From Vicinamibacterales bacterium (GTDB lineage: Bacteria; Acidobacteriota; Vicinamibacteria; Vicinamibacterales; 2-12-FULL-66-21), in assembly GCA_035491715.1 (NCBI GenBank), contig DATJKH010000140.1, forward strand, positions 2,071 to 66,070: a DNA stretch of 64,000 nucleotides, written 5' to 3'. Below are positions 9,609 to 52,142 of this stretch, piece after piece. How positions within the stretch are numbered: the stretch's first letter is position 1; each line of letters begins with the position of its first letter. Under the pieces are notes generated by a model. The model saw only the letters and a list, made by a program, of their open reading frames with translations, ran no database searches and was not told the origin of the DNA. Both the position numbers and the translations under genes were made by a program.

Positions 9609-10040
9609 TTAAAACGGAATATCGTCGTCGGTCAGTTCCGACACGGGTTCCCCCATGTGTTCTTCGGCCGGCGCGGATGCCGCGCGGGGCTGTTGACGGG
9701 CGCCTCCTCCGCCGCCGCCAAGAAGTACGACGCGATCACCACGGATTTCCGTGGTGTAGCGCTTTGAGCCGTCCTTGTCGGTCCACTCTCGCGTCTGAAG
9801 TTTCCCCTCGACGTAGATCTGCTTTCCCTTCATCAGGTATTCGTTCAGGCTCTCGGCCGTCTTGCCCCAGAGGACGACGCGGTGCCACTCGGTTTTTTCC
9901 TGGCGCTGTCCGGCCTTGTCGTTCCACATCTCTGTTGTCGCCAGACTCAGCGTCGCGACCGGTGCGCCGCCAGGCGTGTAGCGAAGCTCGGCGTCGCGTC
10001 CGAGATTTCCAACAAGGATCACTTTATTCACGCTGCCCAT
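9609..10040 (-). CDS. ssb: Single-stranded DNA-binding protein
   Basis: 143 aa. [18 protein letters not shown], Gly-rich tail, acidic tip DDDIPF. Confidence 0.95.
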
Positions 10041-10048
10041 CGAAGCCT

Positions 10049-10083
10049 CAATTCACCATCACCAATTCACCAACTCACCAGTT
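10049..10083 (-). repeat. One-armed short-period tandem array (CACCAA/TCACCA units) ending 8 nt before the ssb ATG
   Basis: Sequence caattcaccatcaccaattcaccaactcaccagtt. Its last 17 nt recur exactly at 59176..59192. Confidence 0.65.
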
Positions 10084-10105
10084 AACAAGAGTCGCGCCAT
10101 TGTGT

Positions 10106-15581: not shown

Positions 15582-15587
15582 AAAGAA

Positions 15588-15680
15588 AGCTTCCAGCTCC
15601 CAGCTGTCAGCTTCCAGCTCACATTACTCGCAGCGTCCGCGTTCAGCAGCTGGTAGCCGGAAGCGGGAAGCTGGAACCTG
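15588..15680 (-). repeat. Heptad-periodic palindromic element (TNCCAGC units) between rpoN and hpf
   Basis: Plus-strand arm agcTTCCAGC TCCCAGC TGTCAGC TTCCAGC TCAC, ~21-nt loop, then the inverse arm CAGCAGCTGGTAGCCGGAAGCGGGAAGCTGGAACCTG. Confidence 0.8.
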
Positions 15681-15691
15681 ACACGTGAAGC

Positions 15692-17893: not shown

Positions 17894-20101
17894 CTATCGC
17901 GTCTCCGTCGGACACGCGATTGACGTCGCCACAGATCTGATTAGGTTGTTTCCGGTCATCGTGATGCTGTCGACGGCGCGCTGGAATTTGAGGACGGACC
18001 CGACCGACTTCTTGCAGTCGGGTGGCGCGATTTCGACAGCTTCGACCGGTGTTCCGGTCATGTGATACGTTTCGTCGCGGGCCAGATACGTCACACGGGC
18101 GCCAGTGGCCACGCGGCCGCCTTCCTTGACCACCACCGAACCATTCGCGCCATAGCCTTCGACGCGCTCGAGCTCATTGACGTCCTTCTTCATAAACAGC
18201 TCGAGCTTTTCGGCCGCGACGTCCCCCTGTGAACCGATCAGGTGCGCCTTGGTGGTGTAGGTCGCCAGACGTTTCGCGTCGTCGTACAAAAATGTTTCCG
18301 ATTCTCCAGTTGACTTCGTGCTCTTGCGCACATTGGTCTTCGGATCGACGTCGTCCATCATCATTTCGGTATGCACGTTGACGCGAGCTTCCAGGTTGCC
18401 GGTCTTATCGTCAACCACGATGGTGTCGGCGTTCACTTTGGTGACTCCCTGCCACAACCGGGAATTTCCAACGTAGACGGCGCGGCCTGCCAGCCCATCG
18501 TAGTCGAGCCGGTTGGACGTGACGGTGACGGGTTGGTCCTGCTGGAGCAGCGACGGGACGTGTGTGTCCGAACCGGATCGGTTCGCCGGGGTCTGACCCT
18601 GGTCTGACCCCGGTTTGACCCCGGTCTGACCCCGGTCTGGCCCCTTCTGCGGCAGCATGGACGTTCGCACTTTCGTGTCCGCTTTCAGCTTCCGCGTTCC
18701 AATCGAGAACTCGATCGTTCGCGCTTCGACGGTGACACGCCCGTCGCTCACCCGCGGGGCCGGCGGACCCGGATCCTGCGATGGCGACAGATCGATCTGG
18801 TCTTTGTCGACATGGTACAAGCCGTGAGTCGAGTCGGCCACGACCTGCGGACCGTCGGTGAAGTGCACGTTGCCGCGAAAGTCTGCCTGTTCGACCGCGC
18901 CAAACCCCGGCTTGGTCGTCACGATCAGGGTCATCGCGCGGGCCTGCCGATCGATCGCCGGCAGAGTGCCGCGTGCCGCGCGGATCTCGCGATAGTCGAC
19001 ATTGCCGCCAAACGTTGCGTTCTGCAGCCCCGTTCCCGGTGCGCCGGTGGCGTTCAAAGTCGCTGAACGAATCCGCTTTGCGGGTGAATCGCCGTCGGGC
19101 GGCAGGTCCACCTGGACGTTCTCCATCGCGTCGAGATTGGTCAGCGTCTTGCCATCTGGCGACATCGTCAGGTCGATCGTCTTCCCGGCGACCCGCTTCC
19201 CTGCACCGTTGCCTTCACCCGGCAGCTGGACGACCGCGTTTTCGACCAGATGCGAACGCTGGAGCGTGCGGCCATCGTCGCCGTAGGTCAGGTCGATGTC
19301 GCGAGCGGTCATCGATTGCGGACCGCCGTCGCCAGAGCCGGTGATCCGGCTGTTGTTGCGGAGCTGCAGAAGCTGGACGCGCTGATCGTCCTGGGTCAGC
19401 ATGATGGTGATGTCGTCGGCGTCGATCACCCGTCCTTCGGCAACGATATGTGCGCTTCGCGTCAGCTTCAGATAGTGTTCCGCTCTCGCGAGGCCGATCG
19501 TTTCGGCCCTGGCATCGATCGCGCCCTGACCTTTCTCGTCAGGCGTCACAGTCACGTGCGGCTGCGCCAACAGCCACAGCACTTCACGGTTGAAATCGTA
19601 GGTCGCTCCGACACCGGTTCCGTGCATACGACTACGCGTGAAGGCGACCGGTCCGGGTGCCTTGAGTAGTCCGGCCTGGTGATCATAGGTCGCGTCCTCG
19701 GTCGTGACCTCGGTGCCGTCGCTCGTCAGCTTGACCGCGCCGATGTAATGCGCCGTCTTCAAATCCTCACCAGCCTGAACCACCTCCGCCTCGTTGCTTC
19801 GAACCGTGAACGGCTTTCCATTTCTCTCCGACGTGATCTCGACACCATTCACCAGACGTGTGCGACCGTCGCTGTAGCTGCACTGGCCGCCAAACTTCAT
19901 GGAGAACACAATCTTGCCGTCTTTCGACTGCTTGATTTCGCCGCCCTGCATGTTTTCGAGAATGCAGTCCTTGTCGCGCCGCTCGGGCACGGCCGCGGCA
20001 GCCGGCGGCGCCTGACGCTGACGCAAGGCGATAGCGACGATCGCGATGAAGACGATCACGAACGCGGCGATAGCGAACCGGGCCTTTTTCTGCCAAGTCA
20101 T
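17894..20101 (-). CDS. Membrane-anchored LptC/LptA (OstA-like) multi-repeat protein, putative fused LPS-transport bridge
   Basis: 735 aa. Single N-terminal TM (FAIAAFVIVFIAIVAIAL), then several OstA-like repeats of the 'A..l.Yd......a.l.GnV' kind. Occupies the lptC-lptA position upstream of lptB. Confidence 0.7.
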   Translation of the reverse strand: MTWQKKARFAIAAFVIVFIAIVAIALRQRQAPPAAAAVPERRDKDCILENMQGGEIKQSKDGKIVFSMKFGGQCSYSDGRTRLVNGVEITSERNGKPFTVRSNEAEVVQAGEDLKTAHYIGAVKLTSDGTEVTTEDATYDHQAGLLKAPGPVAFTRSRMHGTGVGATYDFNREVLWLLAQPHVTVTPDEKGQGAIDARAETIGLARAEHYLKLTRSAHIVAEGRVIDADDITIMLTQDDQRVQLLQLRNNSRITGSGDGGPQSMTARDIDLTYGDDGRTLQRSHLVENAVVQLPGEGNGAGKRVAGKTIDLTMSPDGKTLTNLDAMENVQVDLPPDGDSPAKRIRSATLNATGAPGTGLQNATFGGNVDYREIRAARGTLPAIDRQARAMTLIVTTKPGFGAVEQADFRGNVHFTDGPQVVADSTHGLYHVDKDQIDLSPSQDPGPPAPRVSDGRVTVEARTIEFSIGTRKLKADTKVRTSMLPQKGPDRGQTGVKPGSDQGQTPANRSGSDTHVPSLLQQDQPVTVTSNRLDYDGLAGRAVYVGNSRLWQGVTKVNADTIVVDDKTGNLEARVNVHTEMMMDDVDPKTNVRKSTKSTGESETFLYDDAKRLATYTTKAHLIGSQGDVAAEKLELFMKKDVNELERVEGYGANGSVVVKEGGRVATGARVTYLARDETYHMTGTPVEAVEIAPPDCKKSVGSVLKFQRAVDSITMTGNNLIRSVATSIACPTETR
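18589..18643 (-). repeat. Five tandem copies of an 11-bp unit (GGTCTGACCCC consensus) inside the LptC/LptA-like CDS
   Basis: Units ggtctgaccct ggtctgacccc ggtttgacccc ggtctgacccc ggtctggcccc. Encodes ...GPDRGQTGVKPGSDQGQTP... Confidence 0.9.
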
Positions 20102-20111
20102 CTCGGTTGAA

Positions 20112-20174
20112 GTTACCAGTTGCCAGTTACCAGTTTCCAGTTCCGACGATTGAGGAGTGGAAACTGGAAACCGG
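20112..20174 (-). repeat. Heptad-periodic palindromic element (GTTNCCA units) between recJ and the LptC/LptA-like gene
   Basis: GTTACCA GTTGCCA GTTACCA GTTTCCA GTTCCGA, 12-nt loop, then GGAAACT GGAAACC GG. Confidence 0.8.
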
Positions 20175-20180
20175 CGACTA

Positions 20181-22916: not shown

Positions 22917-25900
22917 TCAGCGTAGCTCCACCGTTCCTGTCCCACAGATCTGTTCGACCTCCGCGACGAGCTTGTCCGACGGCCGCACCCGTTGCGCGAC
23001 GTCGGCGCGCACGCGCATTGGTGGCGGACCGCTGACGTCGAGCTCCAGCGACACGCGCCGGTCACCGCGATGCCGGGCGAGTAACTCGGCGAGCGCTTCG
23101 AACATCGTCCGCGCCTGCGACCCTTGACCGAGATGAATCACCACTTCGCGCGTCGTCTTTTCTTTCAGCGATGCGATCGGCATCAGTTCCGTCGAGACGA
23201 TGCGCGCCGATTCATCGTCGCGTTCGAGCTTGCCGCGCACGAGCAGCATGGCGTCGGCTTCGATGAGCGCGCCAAACTTGCTGAAGGTTTCGGGAAAGAC
23301 GACCACTTCGACCGCGCCACCGACGTCGTCGAGCATGAACACCGCCATGCGTTCGCCCCGGCGCGTCTTGAGTGGACGAAGCCCGGACACAATGCCGCCA
23401 ACCCAGATGTCCGCTTCGGAAGCCGTCAAATCGGCGACGCGGCGGGCTCCGAACGTCTTCAATTCTTCGCTAAAGCGATCGAGCGGATGGCCGCTCATAT
23501 ACAGGCCGAGCGCTTCCTTCTCACCGGCGAGCTGCTGGATTTCGGTCCACGCCGGCGCCTCCGGCAGGGGCACTGCGGCCGTCGGGCTGTCGTTGTCGCC
23601 GCCGCCGAACAACTGGGACTGTCCCTTCTCGCGATCGCGCTGGTGACGGCCGCCGTGTTCGATTGCCCTGTCGACCGCGGCAAACAGGCGCGCCCGCCGC
23701 GCAGCGACGCTGCCGCTTGCCTGTGAGACGAGTGAATCCAGGGCACCTGCCTTGATCAAGCTCTCGAGCACCCGCTTGTTAACCAGCCGCAAATCGGCAG
23801 ATTCACACAGCGTGTAAAGCGAATCGATGCGCCCGCGCTCGCGACGGACGTTGAGCATGGACTGGATCGCACCCTCTCCGACGTTCTTGACCGCGCACAG
23901 TCCGAACCTGACGCCCCCGTTCACCACCGTGAACGCCATCTCGCTCGAGTTGATGTCGGGCGCAAAGATGGTGACGCCGAGTTCGCGGCATTCTCCAAGG
24001 TACATCGCGAGCTTGTCTGTATTGGCCGCCTCGATGGTGAGCAGCGCCGCCATGAAATGCGCGGGATAATTCGCCTTGAGGTATGCGGTCTGATATGCCA
24101 CCCACGCATACGTCGTCGAGTGCGACTTGTTGAAGCCGTAGCCGGCAAAGAATTCCATCAAGTCGAAAATCTTGGTGGCCTTCTTCTCGCTGACTCCGTT
24201 CTTGATGGCGCCGCTGACGAACGCCTCGCGCTGCTTCGCCATGACCTTGGGATCTTTCTTTCCCATGGCCTTCCGAAGGACGTCGGACTGGCCCATCGTA
24301 AAGCCCGCCAGCACGGCGGCAATGCGCATGACCTGTTCCTGGTAGGCAATGACCCCGTAGGTATCTTTGAGGATCGGCGCGAGCTGCGAGAGTTCGTATT
24401 TGACCTCGGTCTTTCCCTGCTTGCGTGAGATGTAGTCGTCGACCATCCCGCTCTTGAGCGGGCCGGGCCGATACAGCGCATTCAACGCAATCAGATCGTC
24501 GAGCCGCTCCGGCTTGGCCTTCCGGAGCAGCTCACGCATGCCGGAGCTTTCGAACTGGAACACGCCGTAGGTCTGACCATCGCAGAACAACTGGAAGGTT
24601 TTCGCGTCGTTCAACGGAATGGCGTCGATGTCGAGATCGATGGCCTCGGTGCGTCGAATCTCGTCGAGCGCATCACGAATAAGCGTGAGGGTACTCAGCC
24701 CGAGAAAATCCATCTTGAGGAGGCCCATCCGTTCGACCTCCTTCATTGCCCATTGGGTGACGATTTCGTCCTTTTGACTCTTGTAGAGAGGAACGAACTC
24801 GGTCAAGGGCCGTGGCGCGATCACGACACCCGCGGCGTGGACCGACGCATGCCGGGTCATGCCCTCGAGTCGACGCGCGACGCCGAGCAGCTCCTTGACC
24901 CGATCGTCCTTCTGCTCCATGTCTTTGAGGACGGGGTTCTCCTCGAGCGCCTTGTCGAGCGTCATGTCCAGTGCCGGCGGGATCGCTTTCGCCACGCGAT
25001 CGGCGTCGGCATACGGAATGTCCATGACGCGCGCGACATCGCGAACGACCGCTCGCGCCTTCATCGTGCCGAACGTGATGATCTGGGCGACGTTCTCGCG
25101 GCCGTACTTGCGCGTCACGTAGTCGATGACTTCGCCGCGCCGCCGCTCGCAGAAGTCAATGTCGATGTCGGGAAGCGACACGCGCTCGGGATTGAGGAAC
25201 CGTTCGAAGATCAGGTCGTACGCGATCGGGTCGACGTCGGTAATCCGAAGACAATACGCGACGAAACTGCCGGCGGCGGAACCACGGCCGGGCCCGACCG
25301 GAATGCCCTGCTCGCGGGCGTAGCGAATGAAGTCCCAGGTGATCAGGAAGTACCCCGGGTATTTCATTTTCTTGATCATGTCGACTTCGTACGTCAGCCG
25401 GCGAACGTATTCGTCAATCGTATGGCTGAGCACTCCAGCTGCCGCCAGTTCCTTGAGCCTCGGCAAACGCTGCGCGAAACCCTCTCGCACGACGTGTTCG
25501 AAGTAGTCGTCGAGCGTCGAGCCGGGAGGCACGTCGAAATTCGGCAGGTGGTTGATCGCGTTGGAGAGGTCGACATTGCACCGCTCCGCGATCCGCATCG
25601 TGTTTGCCAGCGCGTCGGGGTGGTCCTTGAATACCACCGACATTTCCTCGGCGGTCTTCAGGTAGAACTGATCGCCGTGGTATCGCAGACGCTCCGTGTC
25701 GTTGACCGATTTACCAGTGCCGATGCACAGCAGCACATCGTGCGGTTTGAAGTCCGAGTTCTGGAGATAATGCACGTCGTTGGTCGCGACCAGCGACAGG
25801 CCCAGGTCCCTTGCGATCGGGAGCAGCCCGGTATTGACGACCGTCTGCTCGTCGATCCCCTGATACTGCATCTCGAGGAAGAAATTCTTCGCACCGAGAA

Positions 25901-26393
25901 TGTCGCGATACGCGGCCGCCGCGGCGATTGCTTTCTGCTGCTGCTCGGTGCGGATGCCGGTCGCCACTTCTCCCTTGAGACAACTGCTCAAGCCAATCAG
26001 GCCTTCGGCATGCTGCGCCAGCAGGTCCTTGTCGATGCGTGGCTTGTAGTAGAACCCCTCGGTATACCCCGACGACACCAGCTTGATCAGATTGTGATAG
26101 CCGGTCTTGTTCTCGGCCAGCAACACCAGGTGATTGGCGGTTTCACCGGGCGTTCCGCTCTTGGTCCGTCGATCGCCCGGCGCGACGTAGACCTCGCATC
26201 CGAGGATCGGGTTGAGTCCCCGTTTTCTCGCCTGATCGTGAAAAATCACCGACGAGAACATGTTCCCGTGCTCGGTGATCGCCGCGCCCGGCATTTTCAG
26301 CTCCGCGACACGATCCAGCAGCTCCTCAATCCGGCACGCGCCGTCGAGCAGCGAGTATTCGGAGTGAAGGTGAAGGTGGACGAAGTCGGACAT
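22917..26393 (-). CDS. dnaE: DNA polymerase III subunit alpha
   Basis: ORF 22917..26399. PHP domain FVHLHLHSEYSLLDG, polymerase core, OB fold. ATG at 26393; the TTG at 26399 lies inside the heptad repeat. Confidence 0.95.
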   Translation of the reverse strand: MSDFVHLHLHSEYSLLDGACRIEELLDRVAELKMPGAAITEHGNMFSSVIFHDQARKRGLNPILGCEVYVAPGDRRTKSGTPGETANHLVLLAENKTGYHNLIKLVSSGYTEGFYYKPRIDKDLLAQHAEGLIGLSSCLKGEVATGIRTEQQQKAIAAAAAYRDILGAKNFFLEMQYQGIDEQTVVNTGLLPIARDLGLSLVATNDVHYLQNSDFKPHDVLLCIGTGKSVNDTERLRYHGDQFYLKTAEEMSVVFKDHPDALANTMRIAERCNVDLSNAINHLPNFDVPPGSTLDDYFEHVVREGFAQRLPRLKELAAAGVLSHTIDEYVRRLTYEVDMIKKMKYPGYFLITWDFIRYAREQGIPVGPGRGSAAGSFVAYCLRITDVDPIAYDLIFERFLNPERVSLPDIDIDFCERRRGEVIDYVTRKYGRENVAQIITFGTMKARAVVRDVARVMDIPYADADRVAKAIPPALDMTLDKALEENPVLKDMEQKDDRVKELLGVARRLEGMTRHASVHAAGVVIAPRPLTEFVPLYKSQKDEIVTQWAMKEVERMGLLKMDFLGLSTLTLIRDALDEIRRTEAIDLDIDAIPLNDAKTFQLFCDGQTYGVFQFESSGMRELLRKAKPERLDDLIALNALYRPGPLKSGMVDDYISRKQGKTEVKYELSQLAPILKDTYGVIAYQEQVMRIAAVLAGFTMGQSDVLRKAMGKKDPKVMAKQREAFVSGAIKNGVSEKKATKIFDLMEFFAGYGFNKSHSTTYAWVAYQTAYLKANYPAHFMAALLTIEAANTDKLAMYLGECRELGVTIFAPDINSSEMAFTVVNGGVRFGLCAVKNVGEGAIQSMLNVRRERGRIDSLYTLCESADLRLVNKRVLESLIKAGALDSLVSQASGSVAARRARLFAAVDRAIEHGGRHQRDREKGQSQLFGGGDNDSPTAAVPLPEAPAWTEIQQLAGEKEALGLYMSGHPLDRFSEELKTFGARRVADLTASEADIWVGGIVSGLRPLKTRRGERMAVFMLDDVGGAVEVVVFPETFSKFGALIEADAMLLVRGKLERDDESARIVSTELMPIASLKEKTTREVVIHLGQGSQARTMFEALAELLARHRGDRRVSLELDVSGPPPMRVRADVAQRVRPSDKLVAEVEQICGTGTVELR

Positions 26394-26394
26394 A

Positions 26395-26467
26395 CTCAAT
26401 GTTCAATGTTCAATGTTCGATGTCCAATGGCGACCGCGATGCATTGCACATTAAACAGTGAGCATGG
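26395..26467 (-). repeat. Heptad-periodic palindromic element (TNCAATG units) between guaA and dnaE
   Basis: CTCAATG TTCAATG TTCAATG TTCGATG TCCAATG, loop, then GCATTGCACATTAAACAGTGAGCATGG. On the coding strand the 3' arm ...CATTGAACATTGAGT abuts the dnaE ATG. Confidence 0.85.
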
Positions 26468-26469
26468 GT

Positions 26470-28056
26470 TTATTCCCATTCAATCGTCGACGGCGGCTTG
26501 GAACTGATGTCGTAAACGACGCGATTGATGCCTTTGACTTCGTTGACGATCCGCGACGAGATGGTCGCCAGCAGTTCGTGCGGCAGACGTGCCCAGTCGG
26601 CGGTCATGCCGTCGCGGCTCTCCACCGCGCGGAGCGCGATCGTGTACTCGTACGTCCGCGCGTCCCCCATGACACCGACGCTCTGTACCGGCAGCAGCAC
26701 CGCGAACGATTGCCACAGCCGGCGATACCACCCGGCACGTTTCACTTCTTCCGCGACGATGTGATCGGCGCGGCGAATCAACTGGAGTCGCGCCGGCGTA
26801 ACCTCGCCGAGGATGCGGACGGCGAGTCCGGGTCCGGGGAACGGTTGCCGCCACACGAACTCGTCGTCGAGACCGAGTTCCTTTCCGACCAGCCGCACTT
26901 CGTCCTTGAAGAGAAGCCGAAGGGGTTCGACCAGTTTGAAGCGCATGCGCTCGGGCAGGCCGCCCACGTTGTGATGGCTCTTGATCACGTGCGACGGGCC
27001 GATGACCGACACGCTCTCGATCACGTCCGGATACAGTGTCCCCTGCCCGAGAAAATCGAACGACCCGAGTTTCTGCGCTTCCGCCTCGAAAACGTCGATG
27101 AATGCCGCCCCGATGATCTTGCGCTTCTGCTCTGGATCGGTCACTGCCGCCAGTCGCTCGAGAAACAGGGTCGATGCGTCGGCGAAGACGAGCGGCAGAT
27201 TGAGCCGTTCGAAACGCCGTCGGATCTGTCCCGCTTCATCCTCGCGCATGACGCCGTTGTCGACGAAGATGCACGTCAGGTGATCGCCGATCGCGCGATG
27301 AATCAGCAGCGCGGCGACCGTGGAATCGACGCCGCCGCTCAGGCCGCAGACGACGCGCCCCTGGCCAACCTGTCGCCGAATTCGTTCCGTCGCCTCCTCG
27401 ACAAATGACGACATCGTCCAATCGCCGGTGCAACCGCAAACGTCGTAGGCGAAGTTGCGAAGAATGTCGATTCCATGATCGGTGTGCGCCACTTCCGGAT
27501 GAAACAGCAGCGCATACAGGCGCCGGTCCTCGGCGACCATTGCCGCGACCGGCGCATTCGCGCTGGTCGCGATCACCTGGAAACCGGGTGGGGCCGCCTT
27601 GACGAAATCGCCGTGGCTGGCCCACACACGCAGATTGGCTGGAATCGATCCGAACAGCGGCGCGCCGGGTTGGATATCGATGGTCGCCAACCCGAACTCG
27701 CGATGAGGCGCCGGCGCAACCTCGCCGCCGAGCGCGTGGGTCATCAACTGCATGCCGTAGCAGATGCCCAGCACCGGCACGCCTGCGTCGTAGACACCGG
27801 TTTCACAATGTGGCGCGCCCGCCTCCGAAACACTCTTCGGGCCGCCGGATAACACGATACCGACGGGATTGCGTCGTCTGATCTCGTCGAGCGGCGTGTT
27901 GAACGGAAGAATCTCTGAATAGATCGAGAGTTCACGCAGCCGCCGCGCGATCAATTGCGTGAACTGCGATCCGAAATCGAGAACGACGATGGTCTGGTGA
28001 GTCACTGGGCGTGCCGAGTGGTGACCGAACGACGAAACAATTTCATTCGCGATCAT
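26470..28056 (-). CDS. guaA: GMP synthase (glutamine-hydrolysing)
   Basis: 528 aa. GATase [11 protein letters not shown]-PPase SGGVDSTV, C-terminal KPPSTIEWE. Confidence 0.95.
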
Positions 28057-45625: not shown

Positions 45626-45722
45626 CCATGTCCAATGCTCAATGTTCAATGTCCAATGTTCAACGACGTTGCGCATTAAGATTGAGCATCGAGCATTGGA
45701 CATTGGAACATTGAACATTGAT
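45626..45722 (+). repeat. Heptad-periodic palindromic element (TNCAATG units) filling the whole gap up to the speB ATG
   Basis: ccatg TCCAATG CTCAATG TTCAATG TCCAATG TTCAACG acgttgcg CATTAAG ATTGAGC ATCGAGC ATTGGAC ATTGGAA CATTGAA CATTGAT, immediately followed by ATG. Confidence 0.9.
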
Positions 45723-52040: not shown

Positions 52041-52042
52041 AA

Positions 52043-52126
52043 GTTTCCAGTTTCCAGTTCCCAGTTTCCAGTTCCCAGCAGTACATCTCTGCACTGGCAA
52101 CTGGAGACTGGAAACTGGCAACTGAC
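52043..52126 (-). repeat. Heptad-periodic palindromic element (GTTNCCA units) between acyP and apt
   Basis: GTTTCCA GTTTCCA GTTCCCA GTTTCCA GTTCCCA g, 13-nt loop, then CACTGGCAACTGGAGACTGGAAACTGGCAACTGAC. About 28 of 31 positions are complementary in the best register. Confidence 0.9.
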
Positions 52127-52142
52127 ACGCAACTTCAAGCCA

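Follow-up and report, generated by a model that had tools for sequence, protein, structure and literature searches.

Heptanucleotide repeats are the dominant class of long simple repeats in several bacteria (PMC4679880, PMC4692102). As the early surveys are summarized in those two papers, the rank of such repeats as the most frequent long simple repeats in certain bacteria has been on record since 1990 and 2007, with period 7 dominant, a location between genes and an origin attributed to polymerase slippage (cyanobacterial short tandemly repeated repetitive sequences, STRRs, Mazel et al. 1990; long simple sequence repeats, LSSRs, Mrazek et al. 2007). In Xanthomonas (unit GGGAATC) and Nostoc (GGGGAYT), heptamers form inverted pairs (Rehm et al. 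2015, PMC4692102), with 70-75 cases per genome of convergent arrays on opposite strands able to form stem-loops. Repeats of this type are about 90% intergenic, lie mostly between co-directional open reading frames (ORFs) and near the upstream one, are under-represented between divergent ORFs, vary in length and sequence among close relatives, and have no association with gene function (PMC4692102). Heptamers also form one arm of the leader hairpin of Haemophilus influenzae hmw1A, which controls expression post-transcriptionally and is processed by RNase III (PMC12721329). Here we describe a heptad array that fills the spacer between guaA and dnaE in a 64,000-nucleotide stretch (hereafter “the window”) of a Vicinamibacterales bacterium (contig DATJKH010000140.1), a placement in the phylum Acidobacteriota, order Vicinamibacterales, that the relatives of its DnaE confirm. 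No report of heptamer repeats turned up in literature searches on Acidobacteria or Vicinamibacter. Heptamer repeats, inverted pairs included, are already known from Xanthomonas, cyanobacteria and Haemophilus; what is new is the phylum, the diversity of units, the lack of G-tracts and the consistent bridging from stop codon to start codon.

The spacer comprises 76 bases (26394-26469, minus strand) between guaA (GMP synthase, 528 aa, 26470..28056, minus strand; Pfam GATase and GMP_synt_C domains on the identical protein) and dnaE (DNA polymerase III alpha, 1158 aa, 22917..26393, minus strand), which head the co-directional run guaA-dnaE-accA-recJ-lptC/A-lptB-rpoN-hpf-hprK-rapZ. It consists of 7-base repeats in a hairpin arrangement: read along the minus strand, ACC comes right after the guaA TAA (26472-26470), then CATGCTCACTGTTTAATGTGCAATGC, ATCGCGGTCG, CCATTGGA CATCGAA CATTGAA CATTGAA CATTGAG T and finally the dnaE ATG (26393-26391), that is, TNNAATG-type units, a loop and five CATTGNA heptads. 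The 3' array, from CCATTGGA to the final T (26394..26430, minus strand), is a tandem repeat in the sense used for heptanucleotide LSSRs (Tandem Repeats Finder: 26396-26429, period 7, 4.9 copies, 88% matches). With up to one mismatch, CATTGNNCATTG matches the window 15 times against 2.7 +/- 1.7 times in shuffles, and 12 of the 15 matches lie within two elements (5 in the guaA-dnaE spacer and 7 in a sister element at 45626-45722). The original prediction of a heptad palindrome at this place, sharing its TCAATGN/CATTGNA unit with the element at 45626, is thus borne out by the repeat finder, the pattern count and the predicted fold, and its reading of the minus-strand sequence was exact.

Folded as RNA, positions 26390-26472 (minus strand) reach -33.2 kcal/mol, compared with -17.2 +/- 3.3 kcal/mol for shuffled sequences (z = -4.9; 0 of 200 shuffles as good), and the DNA fold of the element has z = -3.5. 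The predicted RNA hairpin has a main stem of ~23 pairs and an imperfect apical portion. Its 5' arm CATGCTCACTGTTTAATGTGCAATG (26442..26466, minus strand; fold positions 7-31), made of degenerate TNNAATG-type units that pair with the 3' arm, begins 4 nt past the guaA stop, with the three bases ACC left unpaired between stop and stem. At the base of the hairpin, CAUGCUCA, the paired portion of CCAUGCUCA, which begins 4 nt past the guaA UAA, is predicted to pair with UGAGUAUG, which holds the dnaE AUG. The 3' arm had been described as abutting the dnaE start, which it does, and the predicted fold even takes the start codon (26391..26393) into the helix, opposite CAT at 26464-26466. The apical region (26416..26441, minus strand) is predicted to form a loop and a weak 6-bp helix, and in it the earliest heptads of the 3' array (CCATTGGA, CATCG) are left without a partner. 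The 3' array also shuts all three reading frames, with TGA stops 2, 9 and 16 nt upstream of the dnaE ATG.

A gapless inverted-repeat finder reported no arm pair for this element because its arms are interrupted, which, together with its 5' arm, makes it the most degenerate of the heptad elements of the window. It is a convergent inverted pair of the Xanthomonas type all the same, though with a degenerate 5' arm, and its CATTGNA / TNCAATG units contain no G runs of the kind that would build a G-quadruplex. Scans of 26394-26469 gave no sigma-70 promoter-like or intrinsic-terminator-like site; an intrinsic terminator was considered and rejected, as the gap holds no GC-rich stem with a U tract and the stem runs on into AUGUCC. 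Against Rfam, a tRNA-Arg alone passes the gathering score in the window, and at E <= 5 the guaA-dnaE element still has no match.

Broadly speaking, the guaA-dnaE spacer is one instance of a wider pattern. When the window was scanned for periodic sequence, period 7 stood out with tracts at five loci, and other periods gave next to nothing. Each of the five is an inverted pair of the form (U)n-loop-(U')n; together they use three different unit types and have predicted helices of 20-35 bp. The gap between the flanking genes is filled or nearly filled in every case, and the distance from the end of the element to a start codon is 0-20 nt. The sister palindrome (TCAATGN)5-loop-(CATTGNA)6 (45626..45722, plus strand) has a Tricorn/PD40-like gene on one side and an arginase-family gene on the other, and its fold reaches -44.7 kcal/mol (z = -6.7), with CAUG right after the stop predicted to pair with the downstream AUG. 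A CCAGCTT/AAGCTGG palindrome fills the rpoN-hpf gap (15582..15691, minus strand), a CCAGTTN/NAACTGG palindrome fills the recJ-lptC/A gap (20102..20180, minus strand), and another CCAGTTN/NAACTGG palindrome (52041..52128, minus strand) occupies a divergent gap and abuts the start codon of apt (52040). Promoter and terminator scans of the apt region (sigma-70 promoters, intrinsic terminators) found nothing in this gap, and the only other Rfam signals in the window at E <= 5 were sub-threshold matches of miRNA-precursor type on the 52041 hairpin. The genes flanking the five elements (guaA/dnaE, recJ/lpt, rpoN/hpf, an arginase-family gene, apt) share no functional theme. With five palindromes and three unit types in one window, the idea of a two-member “TNCAATG family” linking two genes does not hold: this unit is one among dozens in the clade, and AGCTNCC and AGTTNCC versions occur in the same window. 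The shared orientation relative to the downstream gene, which had been offered as a further link, is likewise uninformative, since an inverted repeat reads alike on both strands. The guaA-dnaE element is therefore one of many heptad hairpins of the clade and not a dedicated dnaE control element.

To describe this distribution we used the window together with 80 related Vicinamibacterales loci (1.5 Mb in total; individual loci are given below as L numbers). Arrays of period 7 numbered 126, compared with 1-22 at periods 4-13, and 88 of 92 heptad elements were intergenic, the same excess and intergenic bias as in heptanucleotide LSSRs. Strong period-7 signal was present in 74 of 300 co-directional gaps but in only 2 of 95 gaps between divergent genes and 2 of 26 between convergent ones, and it was absent from all 803 coding segments, a co-directional preference and divergent depletion of the Xanthomonas type (Fisher p = 6e-8 for co-directional vs. 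divergent gaps, from counts that are not independent because the loci are syntenic). Array density was 6.9 per 100 kb where DnaE is at least 79% identical to that of the window and 1.3 in more distant loci, which points to a clade-specific bloom. At least 69 canonical units were found, each with a conserved 5-nt core and two variable positions, and these fall into a few superfamilies (GATTGNN, GAATGNN/TCAATGN, CCAGCTN/CCAGTTN/CAGCTNT, GGCTCAN). Loss of mismatch repair does not account for the bloom, since the window itself encodes MutS; 7-nt loops are a poor substrate for MutS recognition.

Set against the known systems, the clade arrays share with those of Xanthomonas and Nostoc the 7-nt tandem unit, the intergenic inverted pairs, the co-directional bias, the variation between relatives and the lack of a gene theme and, as we read the Xanthomonas study (PMC4692102), the G-rich arm also comes first in convergent pairs there. 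Unlike the Xanthomonas repeats, whose single unit has G-tracts that form G-quadruplexes, they comprise dozens of unit types without G-tracts (CATTGNA, CAATCGN, CCAGCTT and others), fill the whole gap from stop to start so as to reach the start codon, and belong to the phylum Acidobacteriota. The (ATCTTTC)n tract of hmw1A is likewise a heptamer repeat, transcribed as part of a leader, and it supplies one of the two arms of a long hairpin that precedes the start codon. Its right arm is a non-repeat G-rich region, whereas the guaA-dnaE element has repeats in both arms, and it is a perfect, highly phase-variable tract before a surface adhesin gene (PMC12721329), in contrast to the imperfect units, population-stable length and housekeeping genes seen here. 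TAACTGA repeats of marine Beggiatoaceae, cyanobacteria and Bacteroidetes (MacGregor 2015, PMC4679880) resemble the clade arrays in having no functional theme, essential genes included, and in lying close to start codons in Shine-Dalgarno-poor genomes (Beggiatoaceae, PMC4679880). They consist of a single unit in nearly always direct repeats (one inverted in 170), whereas the clade has many units, mostly in inverted pairs, and the guaA-dnaE element, with a different unit and an inverted partner, shares only the start-proximal position. LSSRs and STRRs are comparable in their dominant period of 7, intergenic location and attribution to slippage; the summaries of those surveys in later papers mention no self-complementary arrangement, no bridging from stop to start and no Acidobacteria. 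Finally, repetitive extragenic palindromic (REP) sequences, the related bacterial interspersed mosaic elements (BIMEs) and REP doublets (REPINs), and the stabilizer stem-loops that act in the selective processing and stabilization of RNA (SRPS) are also intra-operon intergenic hairpins in genome-specific families with potential effects on segmental mRNA stability (PMC4423207). REPs differ in being fixed sequences of 20-40 nt without internal 7-nt periodicity, mobilized by REP-associated tyrosine transposases (RAYTs), while the copies in this clade share the unit only.

The orthologous junctions document rapid gain, loss and replacement. Comparison of the guaA-dnaE gap across relatives, as proposed with the original prediction, revealed both presence/absence and variation in unit number: among 67 genomes, 23 gaps are <= 15 nt, often with an ATGA overlap, and 40 are >= 40 nt, of which 23 have strong period 7. 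The units at orthologous positions include CAATCGG, CATTCAG and GATTGCC, among others. L001 (DnaE 94% identical) is the only relative with the same unit here, likewise in a gap of 76 nt, whereas L079 (DnaE 92%) has a gap of 10 nt, L002 (DnaE 92%) a 260-nt GATTGNN/NNCAATC palindrome, and L003, L004 and L006 different units. With 23 of the 67 orthologous gaps no longer than 15 nt, expression of dnaE cannot hinge on the element; judged from these comparisons it is dispensable for dnaE and subject to fast turnover on a short evolutionary scale. The hairpin at the rpoN-hpf junction is present in 18 of 46 related genomes, with units altered in both arms. In L001 a TCAATGN hairpin follows dnaE, at a junction that measures 8 nt in the window, and comparison of filled and empty sites at the dnaE-accA junction places the insert directly after the stop codon, with the ancestral spacer “gcgccctt” kept beside the ATG.

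Other palindromes were seen at the same junctions. In L079 (13478-13710), L004 (12341-12482) and L006 (13396-13527) the dnaE-accA gap holds a non-heptad class of 130-230 nt (caagatc…aggag…ctcct…gatcttg), while other genomes have heptad hairpins there. The guaA-dnaE gaps of L010, L036, L037, L039 and L045 have in common a GC-rich palindromic motif, GCG(G/T)GGGGTGGGGCCCC(G/A)CG(A/C)GCA, which suggests a REP-like family distinct from the heptads. The guaA-dnaE gap of L022 (9748-9840) opens with G-rich heptads (GGAGGGC, about 12 copies), resembling the G-quadruplex-capable units of Xanthomonas, and continues with CAATC-type heptads.

On the shortest time scale, we compared 11 natural genomes, ten of them recovered from other soil assemblies via contigs about 99.8% identical. 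The guaA-dnaE gap is 76 nt in all 11, with a single SNP, a C/T polymorphism at 26453 (TTTAATG or TTCAATG) that keeps pairing as U.G or C-G. At the sister element, 7 of 11 genomes have 97 nt and 4 of 11 have 90 nt, the difference being exactly one heptad of the 5' arm, which is direct evidence of unit slippage; the other three elements of the window are of constant length in this sample. Between the window and L001, the guaA-dnaE gap is 75% identical, compared with 66% at dnaE third codon positions, so the gap evolves at a nearly neutral rate. Both gaps nonetheless fold to about -33 kcal/mol, in different registers, where 19 random substitutions would give -18 +/- 4.5 kcal/mol (p about 0.004 for the stability of the L001 hairpin).

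The two arms also change together. Duplexes of native guaA-dnaE arms average -69 kcal/mol, compared with -40 for chimeras of orthologous arms, and four other junctions differ in the same direction. At rpoN-hpf the unit is CCAGCTT, CCAGTTN or TCAGCTN depending on the genome, with C-to-T changes in the 5' arm matched by G-to-A changes in the 3' arm. Units are shared between junctions (<= 1 mismatch) in 33% of same-genome pairs vs. 16% of pairs between genomes (permutation p = 0.003). In addition, the arrays are chiral: G and T predominate in the 5' half of the 74 co-directional heptad gaps, A and C in the 3' half (G minus C, +309 vs. -242; A minus T, -97 vs. +148), and ATG, GTG and TTG number 310 in 5' halves vs. 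120 in 3' halves, compared with 387 vs. 328 in control gaps. Palindromy fixes orientation only; it leaves free the choice between the two palindromes that are possible. Possible reasons for this choice are avoidance of false start codons beside the real one, or of a C-rich RNA arm that would be exposed for a short time and could load Rho.

The account of these patterns that we favor, with somewhat better than even confidence, is that the guaA-dnaE spacer belongs to a clade-wide set of self-complementary heptad arrays that arise by slippage and arm templating and persist as dispensable, self-folding spacers, here masking the dnaE AUG. Under this account, whose origin step is read from the evolutionary patterns, 7-nt units would be gained and lost through replication slippage, and the arms would be held complementary by quasi-palindrome template switching, by selection for foldability, or by both. 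Quasi-palindrome template switching is established in E. coli. The arrays would expand directly after the stop codon, within a former stop/start junction of 0-10 nt, and a tight operon junction would accommodate such an insert thanks to its folding on itself. We infer that transcription would run through the gap, that the RNA would fold in vivo and that translation may be affected; the persistence of the element and its effect on dnaE would follow from the predicted structure. In the guaA-dnaE transcript, a predicted hairpin of about 30 bp would bring stop and start together and mask the AUG, so that dnaE initiation, given little Shine-Dalgarno signal, would need the stem to be opened. The opener we favor is the ribosome terminating at guaA (translational coupling), because this would reproduce the coupling of the overlapping ATGA junction in relatives, with RNase III cleavage as the main alternative. 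If hairpins of this kind do control initiation or the processing of RNA, the effect would extend to roughly one in four of the longer operon junctions (35-400 nt) sampled near dnaE in this clade.

The little Shine-Dalgarno signal was estimated as follows. Pairing with the anti-Shine-Dalgarno sequence at -6 kcal/mol or stronger is found in 12% of gaps >= 20 nt, vs. 11% of the coding background, and in 3% of heptad gaps, percentages that are approximate because gene starts came from a simple caller; they suggest a mode of initiation in the clade that is independent of Shine-Dalgarno pairing. Between the 3' arm and the ATG there is often a short pyrimidine-rich spacer (…CTT, …CCTT, …TTCTTT). The idea that the 3' arm itself supplies a Shine-Dalgarno sequence holds for GGAAGCT-type units only, not for CATTGNA or CAATCGG, and was set aside. 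An upstream-ORF arrangement (ATGs in the 5' arm, TGAs in all frames of the 3' arm) is true of CATTGNA and fails for other units; we rejected it because that unit brings it about automatically. How far the outermost minimum-free-energy pair lies from the stop and start codons, compared between heptad and non-heptad gaps, was uninformative, as the ends of any gap pair and the array detector was so strict that degenerate heptad gaps stayed among the controls.

Several observations weigh against the favored account. Across 67 gaps, RNA folds of the sense strand match those of the antisense strand in stability (32 vs. 34), and G-U pairs number 251 in the sense and 246 in the antisense folds; there is therefore no sign of sense-RNA-specific selection, and this equality fits a DNA-level or purely mutational origin as well. 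The simulated decay behind the p of about 0.004 suggests conservation, but its null is biased if the two gaps descend from a more perfect palindrome. The loci compared come from metagenome-assembled genomes and are syntenic and phylogenetically linked, so that gap counts are not independent, and gene calls and starts come from a simple home-made caller. Coupling by the ribosome cannot be general, because the apt element sits in a divergent gap without an upstream cistron, and the stem of the recJ-lptC element ends about 20 nt before the AUG.

The strongest competitor, to which we give a smaller but still serious chance, is that the arrays are purely neutral or selfish debris of slippage and template switching, of no consequence for guaA or dnaE expression. 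The presence/absence and unit replacement among close relatives, the near-neutral divergence of the gap (75% vs. 66% at third codon positions), the lack of sense/antisense asymmetry and the adjoining genes without a common theme all agree with it, and a dedicated study gave the comparable repeats of Xanthomonas and Nostoc no function (PMC4692102). It sits less well with the strong depletion from divergent gaps, with arm complementarity kept while units change, and with the fixed chirality (310 vs. 120 start-type codons, against 387 vs. 328 in controls), which implies at least a selective filter. Structured ribosome binding sites generally affect initiation, and a predicted 30-bp stem over a start codon is hard to square with no effect on it.

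Somewhat less probable, in our view, is that the hairpin is an RNase III processing site, whose cleavage would separate the guaA and dnaE messages, set their relative stability and unmask the dnaE AUG, as a case of SRPS. The predicted helices of all five window elements would suffice for RNase III, at 20-35 bp, and such a role would also fit the apt element, which has no upstream cistron. There is experimental precedent in the heptamer hairpin of the hmw1A 5' untranslated region, cleavage of which raises expression in H. influenzae (PMC12721329), and in intercistronic stem-loops that set operon stoichiometry in Clostridium (PMC4423207). The lack of G-U enrichment on the sense strand gives no support to the RNA-level selection that this would entail. 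It is tempting to go further and speculate that the arrays are a selected, standard intercistronic spacer, with complementarity and chirality both under selection and the hairpins acting as ribosome or RNase III switches that set cistron output, a reading we hold to be about as doubtful as the processing site. The G/U-rich arm bearing start codons may then come first, and the A/C-rich arm free of them lie beside the AUG, under a constraint that is possibly co-transcriptional (avoidance of C-rich Rho loading sites and of false starts).

A mobile element resembling a REP/REPIN or a miniature inverted-repeat transposable element (MITE), spread by a hairpin-recognizing transposase, appears improbable. 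Genome-specific unit families, chirality fixed within families and the occupation of new junctions, such as the TCAATGN hairpin after dnaE in L001, are what it would produce. The copies share the heptad unit only, however, with differing loops, lengths and flanks; an alignment of five CATTGNA elements has heptads alone in common and no shared 20-40-nt palindrome, and filled and empty sites differ by no terminal signature or target-site duplication. No transposase was identified in the window, which is about 1% of the genome and for which no systematic protein annotation was made. We consider it fractionally less probable again that the 5-nt cores (CATTG, CAATC, CAGCT), recurring every 7 nt, are a binding array for S1, a cold-shock protein or CsrA, in line with the RNA- or single-stranded-DNA-binding regulator earlier proposed for TAACTGA repeats (PMC4679880). 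Arrays right upstream of starts in a Shine-Dalgarno-poor lineage, as in Beggiatoaceae (PMC4679880), and the conserved core with two variable positions are suggestive of such binding, but a single sequence-specific binder does not fit at least 69 canonical units that differ at orthologous positions, and self-complementary pairing would hide single-stranded sites. Least probable by far is a contingency (phase-variation) locus switching DnaE by frequent changes of heptad number: for all the one-unit polymorphism of the sister element, the guaA-dnaE gap is 76 nt with one SNP in 11 of 11 natural genomes rather than a perfect, length-variable tract, its imperfect units suppress slippage, and the genes concerned are housekeeping genes.

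Whichever reading is preferred, the clade, which belongs to an abundant soil order, offers clean natural material for the study of heptamer repeats, with its many units, hairpins bridging stop and start, co-changing arms, fixed chirality and one-unit slippage in the wild.

The arrays also bear on gene annotation. The original prediction noted that the start of the dnaE ORF, TTG 26399, lies inside the repeat, and concluded that the start annotation hinges on how the element is interpreted. The first part is right: TTG 26399 falls within the last heptad, is merely the first start-type codon after a stop (a mechanical ORF start) and adds just two codons. The second does not follow, as ATG 26393 yields the DnaE N-terminus MSDFVHLHLHSEYSLLDG and orthologous DnaE begins at the equivalent ATG or GTG in about 70 of 78 upstream regions, with an N-terminus conserved across the 80 related loci. 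In many relatives the guaA stop overlaps the dnaE start (…GAGTGGGAATGA…), which leaves no space for an upstream start, and from these comparisons a dnaE start at ATG 26393 rather than TTG 26399 is not really in doubt. A similar case arises at the sister element, where ATG 45642 in the 5' arm is in frame with the arginase-family gene, with no stop between and an ORF open from 45516. A call at this codon could add a spurious N-terminal extension of 27 residues (MFNVQCSTTLRIKIEHRALDIGTLNID), and public gene calls use ATG 45723. Since heptad arrays mislead ORF-based start calls in this way, they should be masked when annotating such genomes.

A metagenome scan with CATTGAA x 2.9 as query says little about the guaA-dnaE element, and shows that the unit is common elsewhere. 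The matches listed (loci L091-L170) are mostly tandem CATTGAA arrays, up to about 240 nt long, from unrelated organisms of 29-65% GC; gut or rumen-type samples are a frequent source, and one array (L167) sits on an apparently phage-like contig. Almost always these are direct repeats without an inverted partner.

Two further repeats of the window are of other kinds. Before the ATG of ssb (9609-10040, minus strand), positions 10041-10090 hold a one-armed, irregular array of 6-8-nt units (GGTGAGT TGGTGAAT TGGTGA TGGTGAAT on the sense strand) without an inverted partner, identical in four other natural genomes. In one population sample (L213:11542-11973) ssb itself is called as two ORFs of 51 and 74 aa instead of 143 aa, through a frameshift or nonsense variant or an assembly error. 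Positions 18586-18646, inside the lptC/lptA-like ORF (17894-20101), hold an 11-nt unit (GGTCTGACCCC) five times over; this array encodes a low-complexity linker (GPDRGQTGVKPGSDQGQTP) and is invariant in five population samples. Of the operon's proteins, the one from this ORF shows the lowest conservation (57-85% identity).

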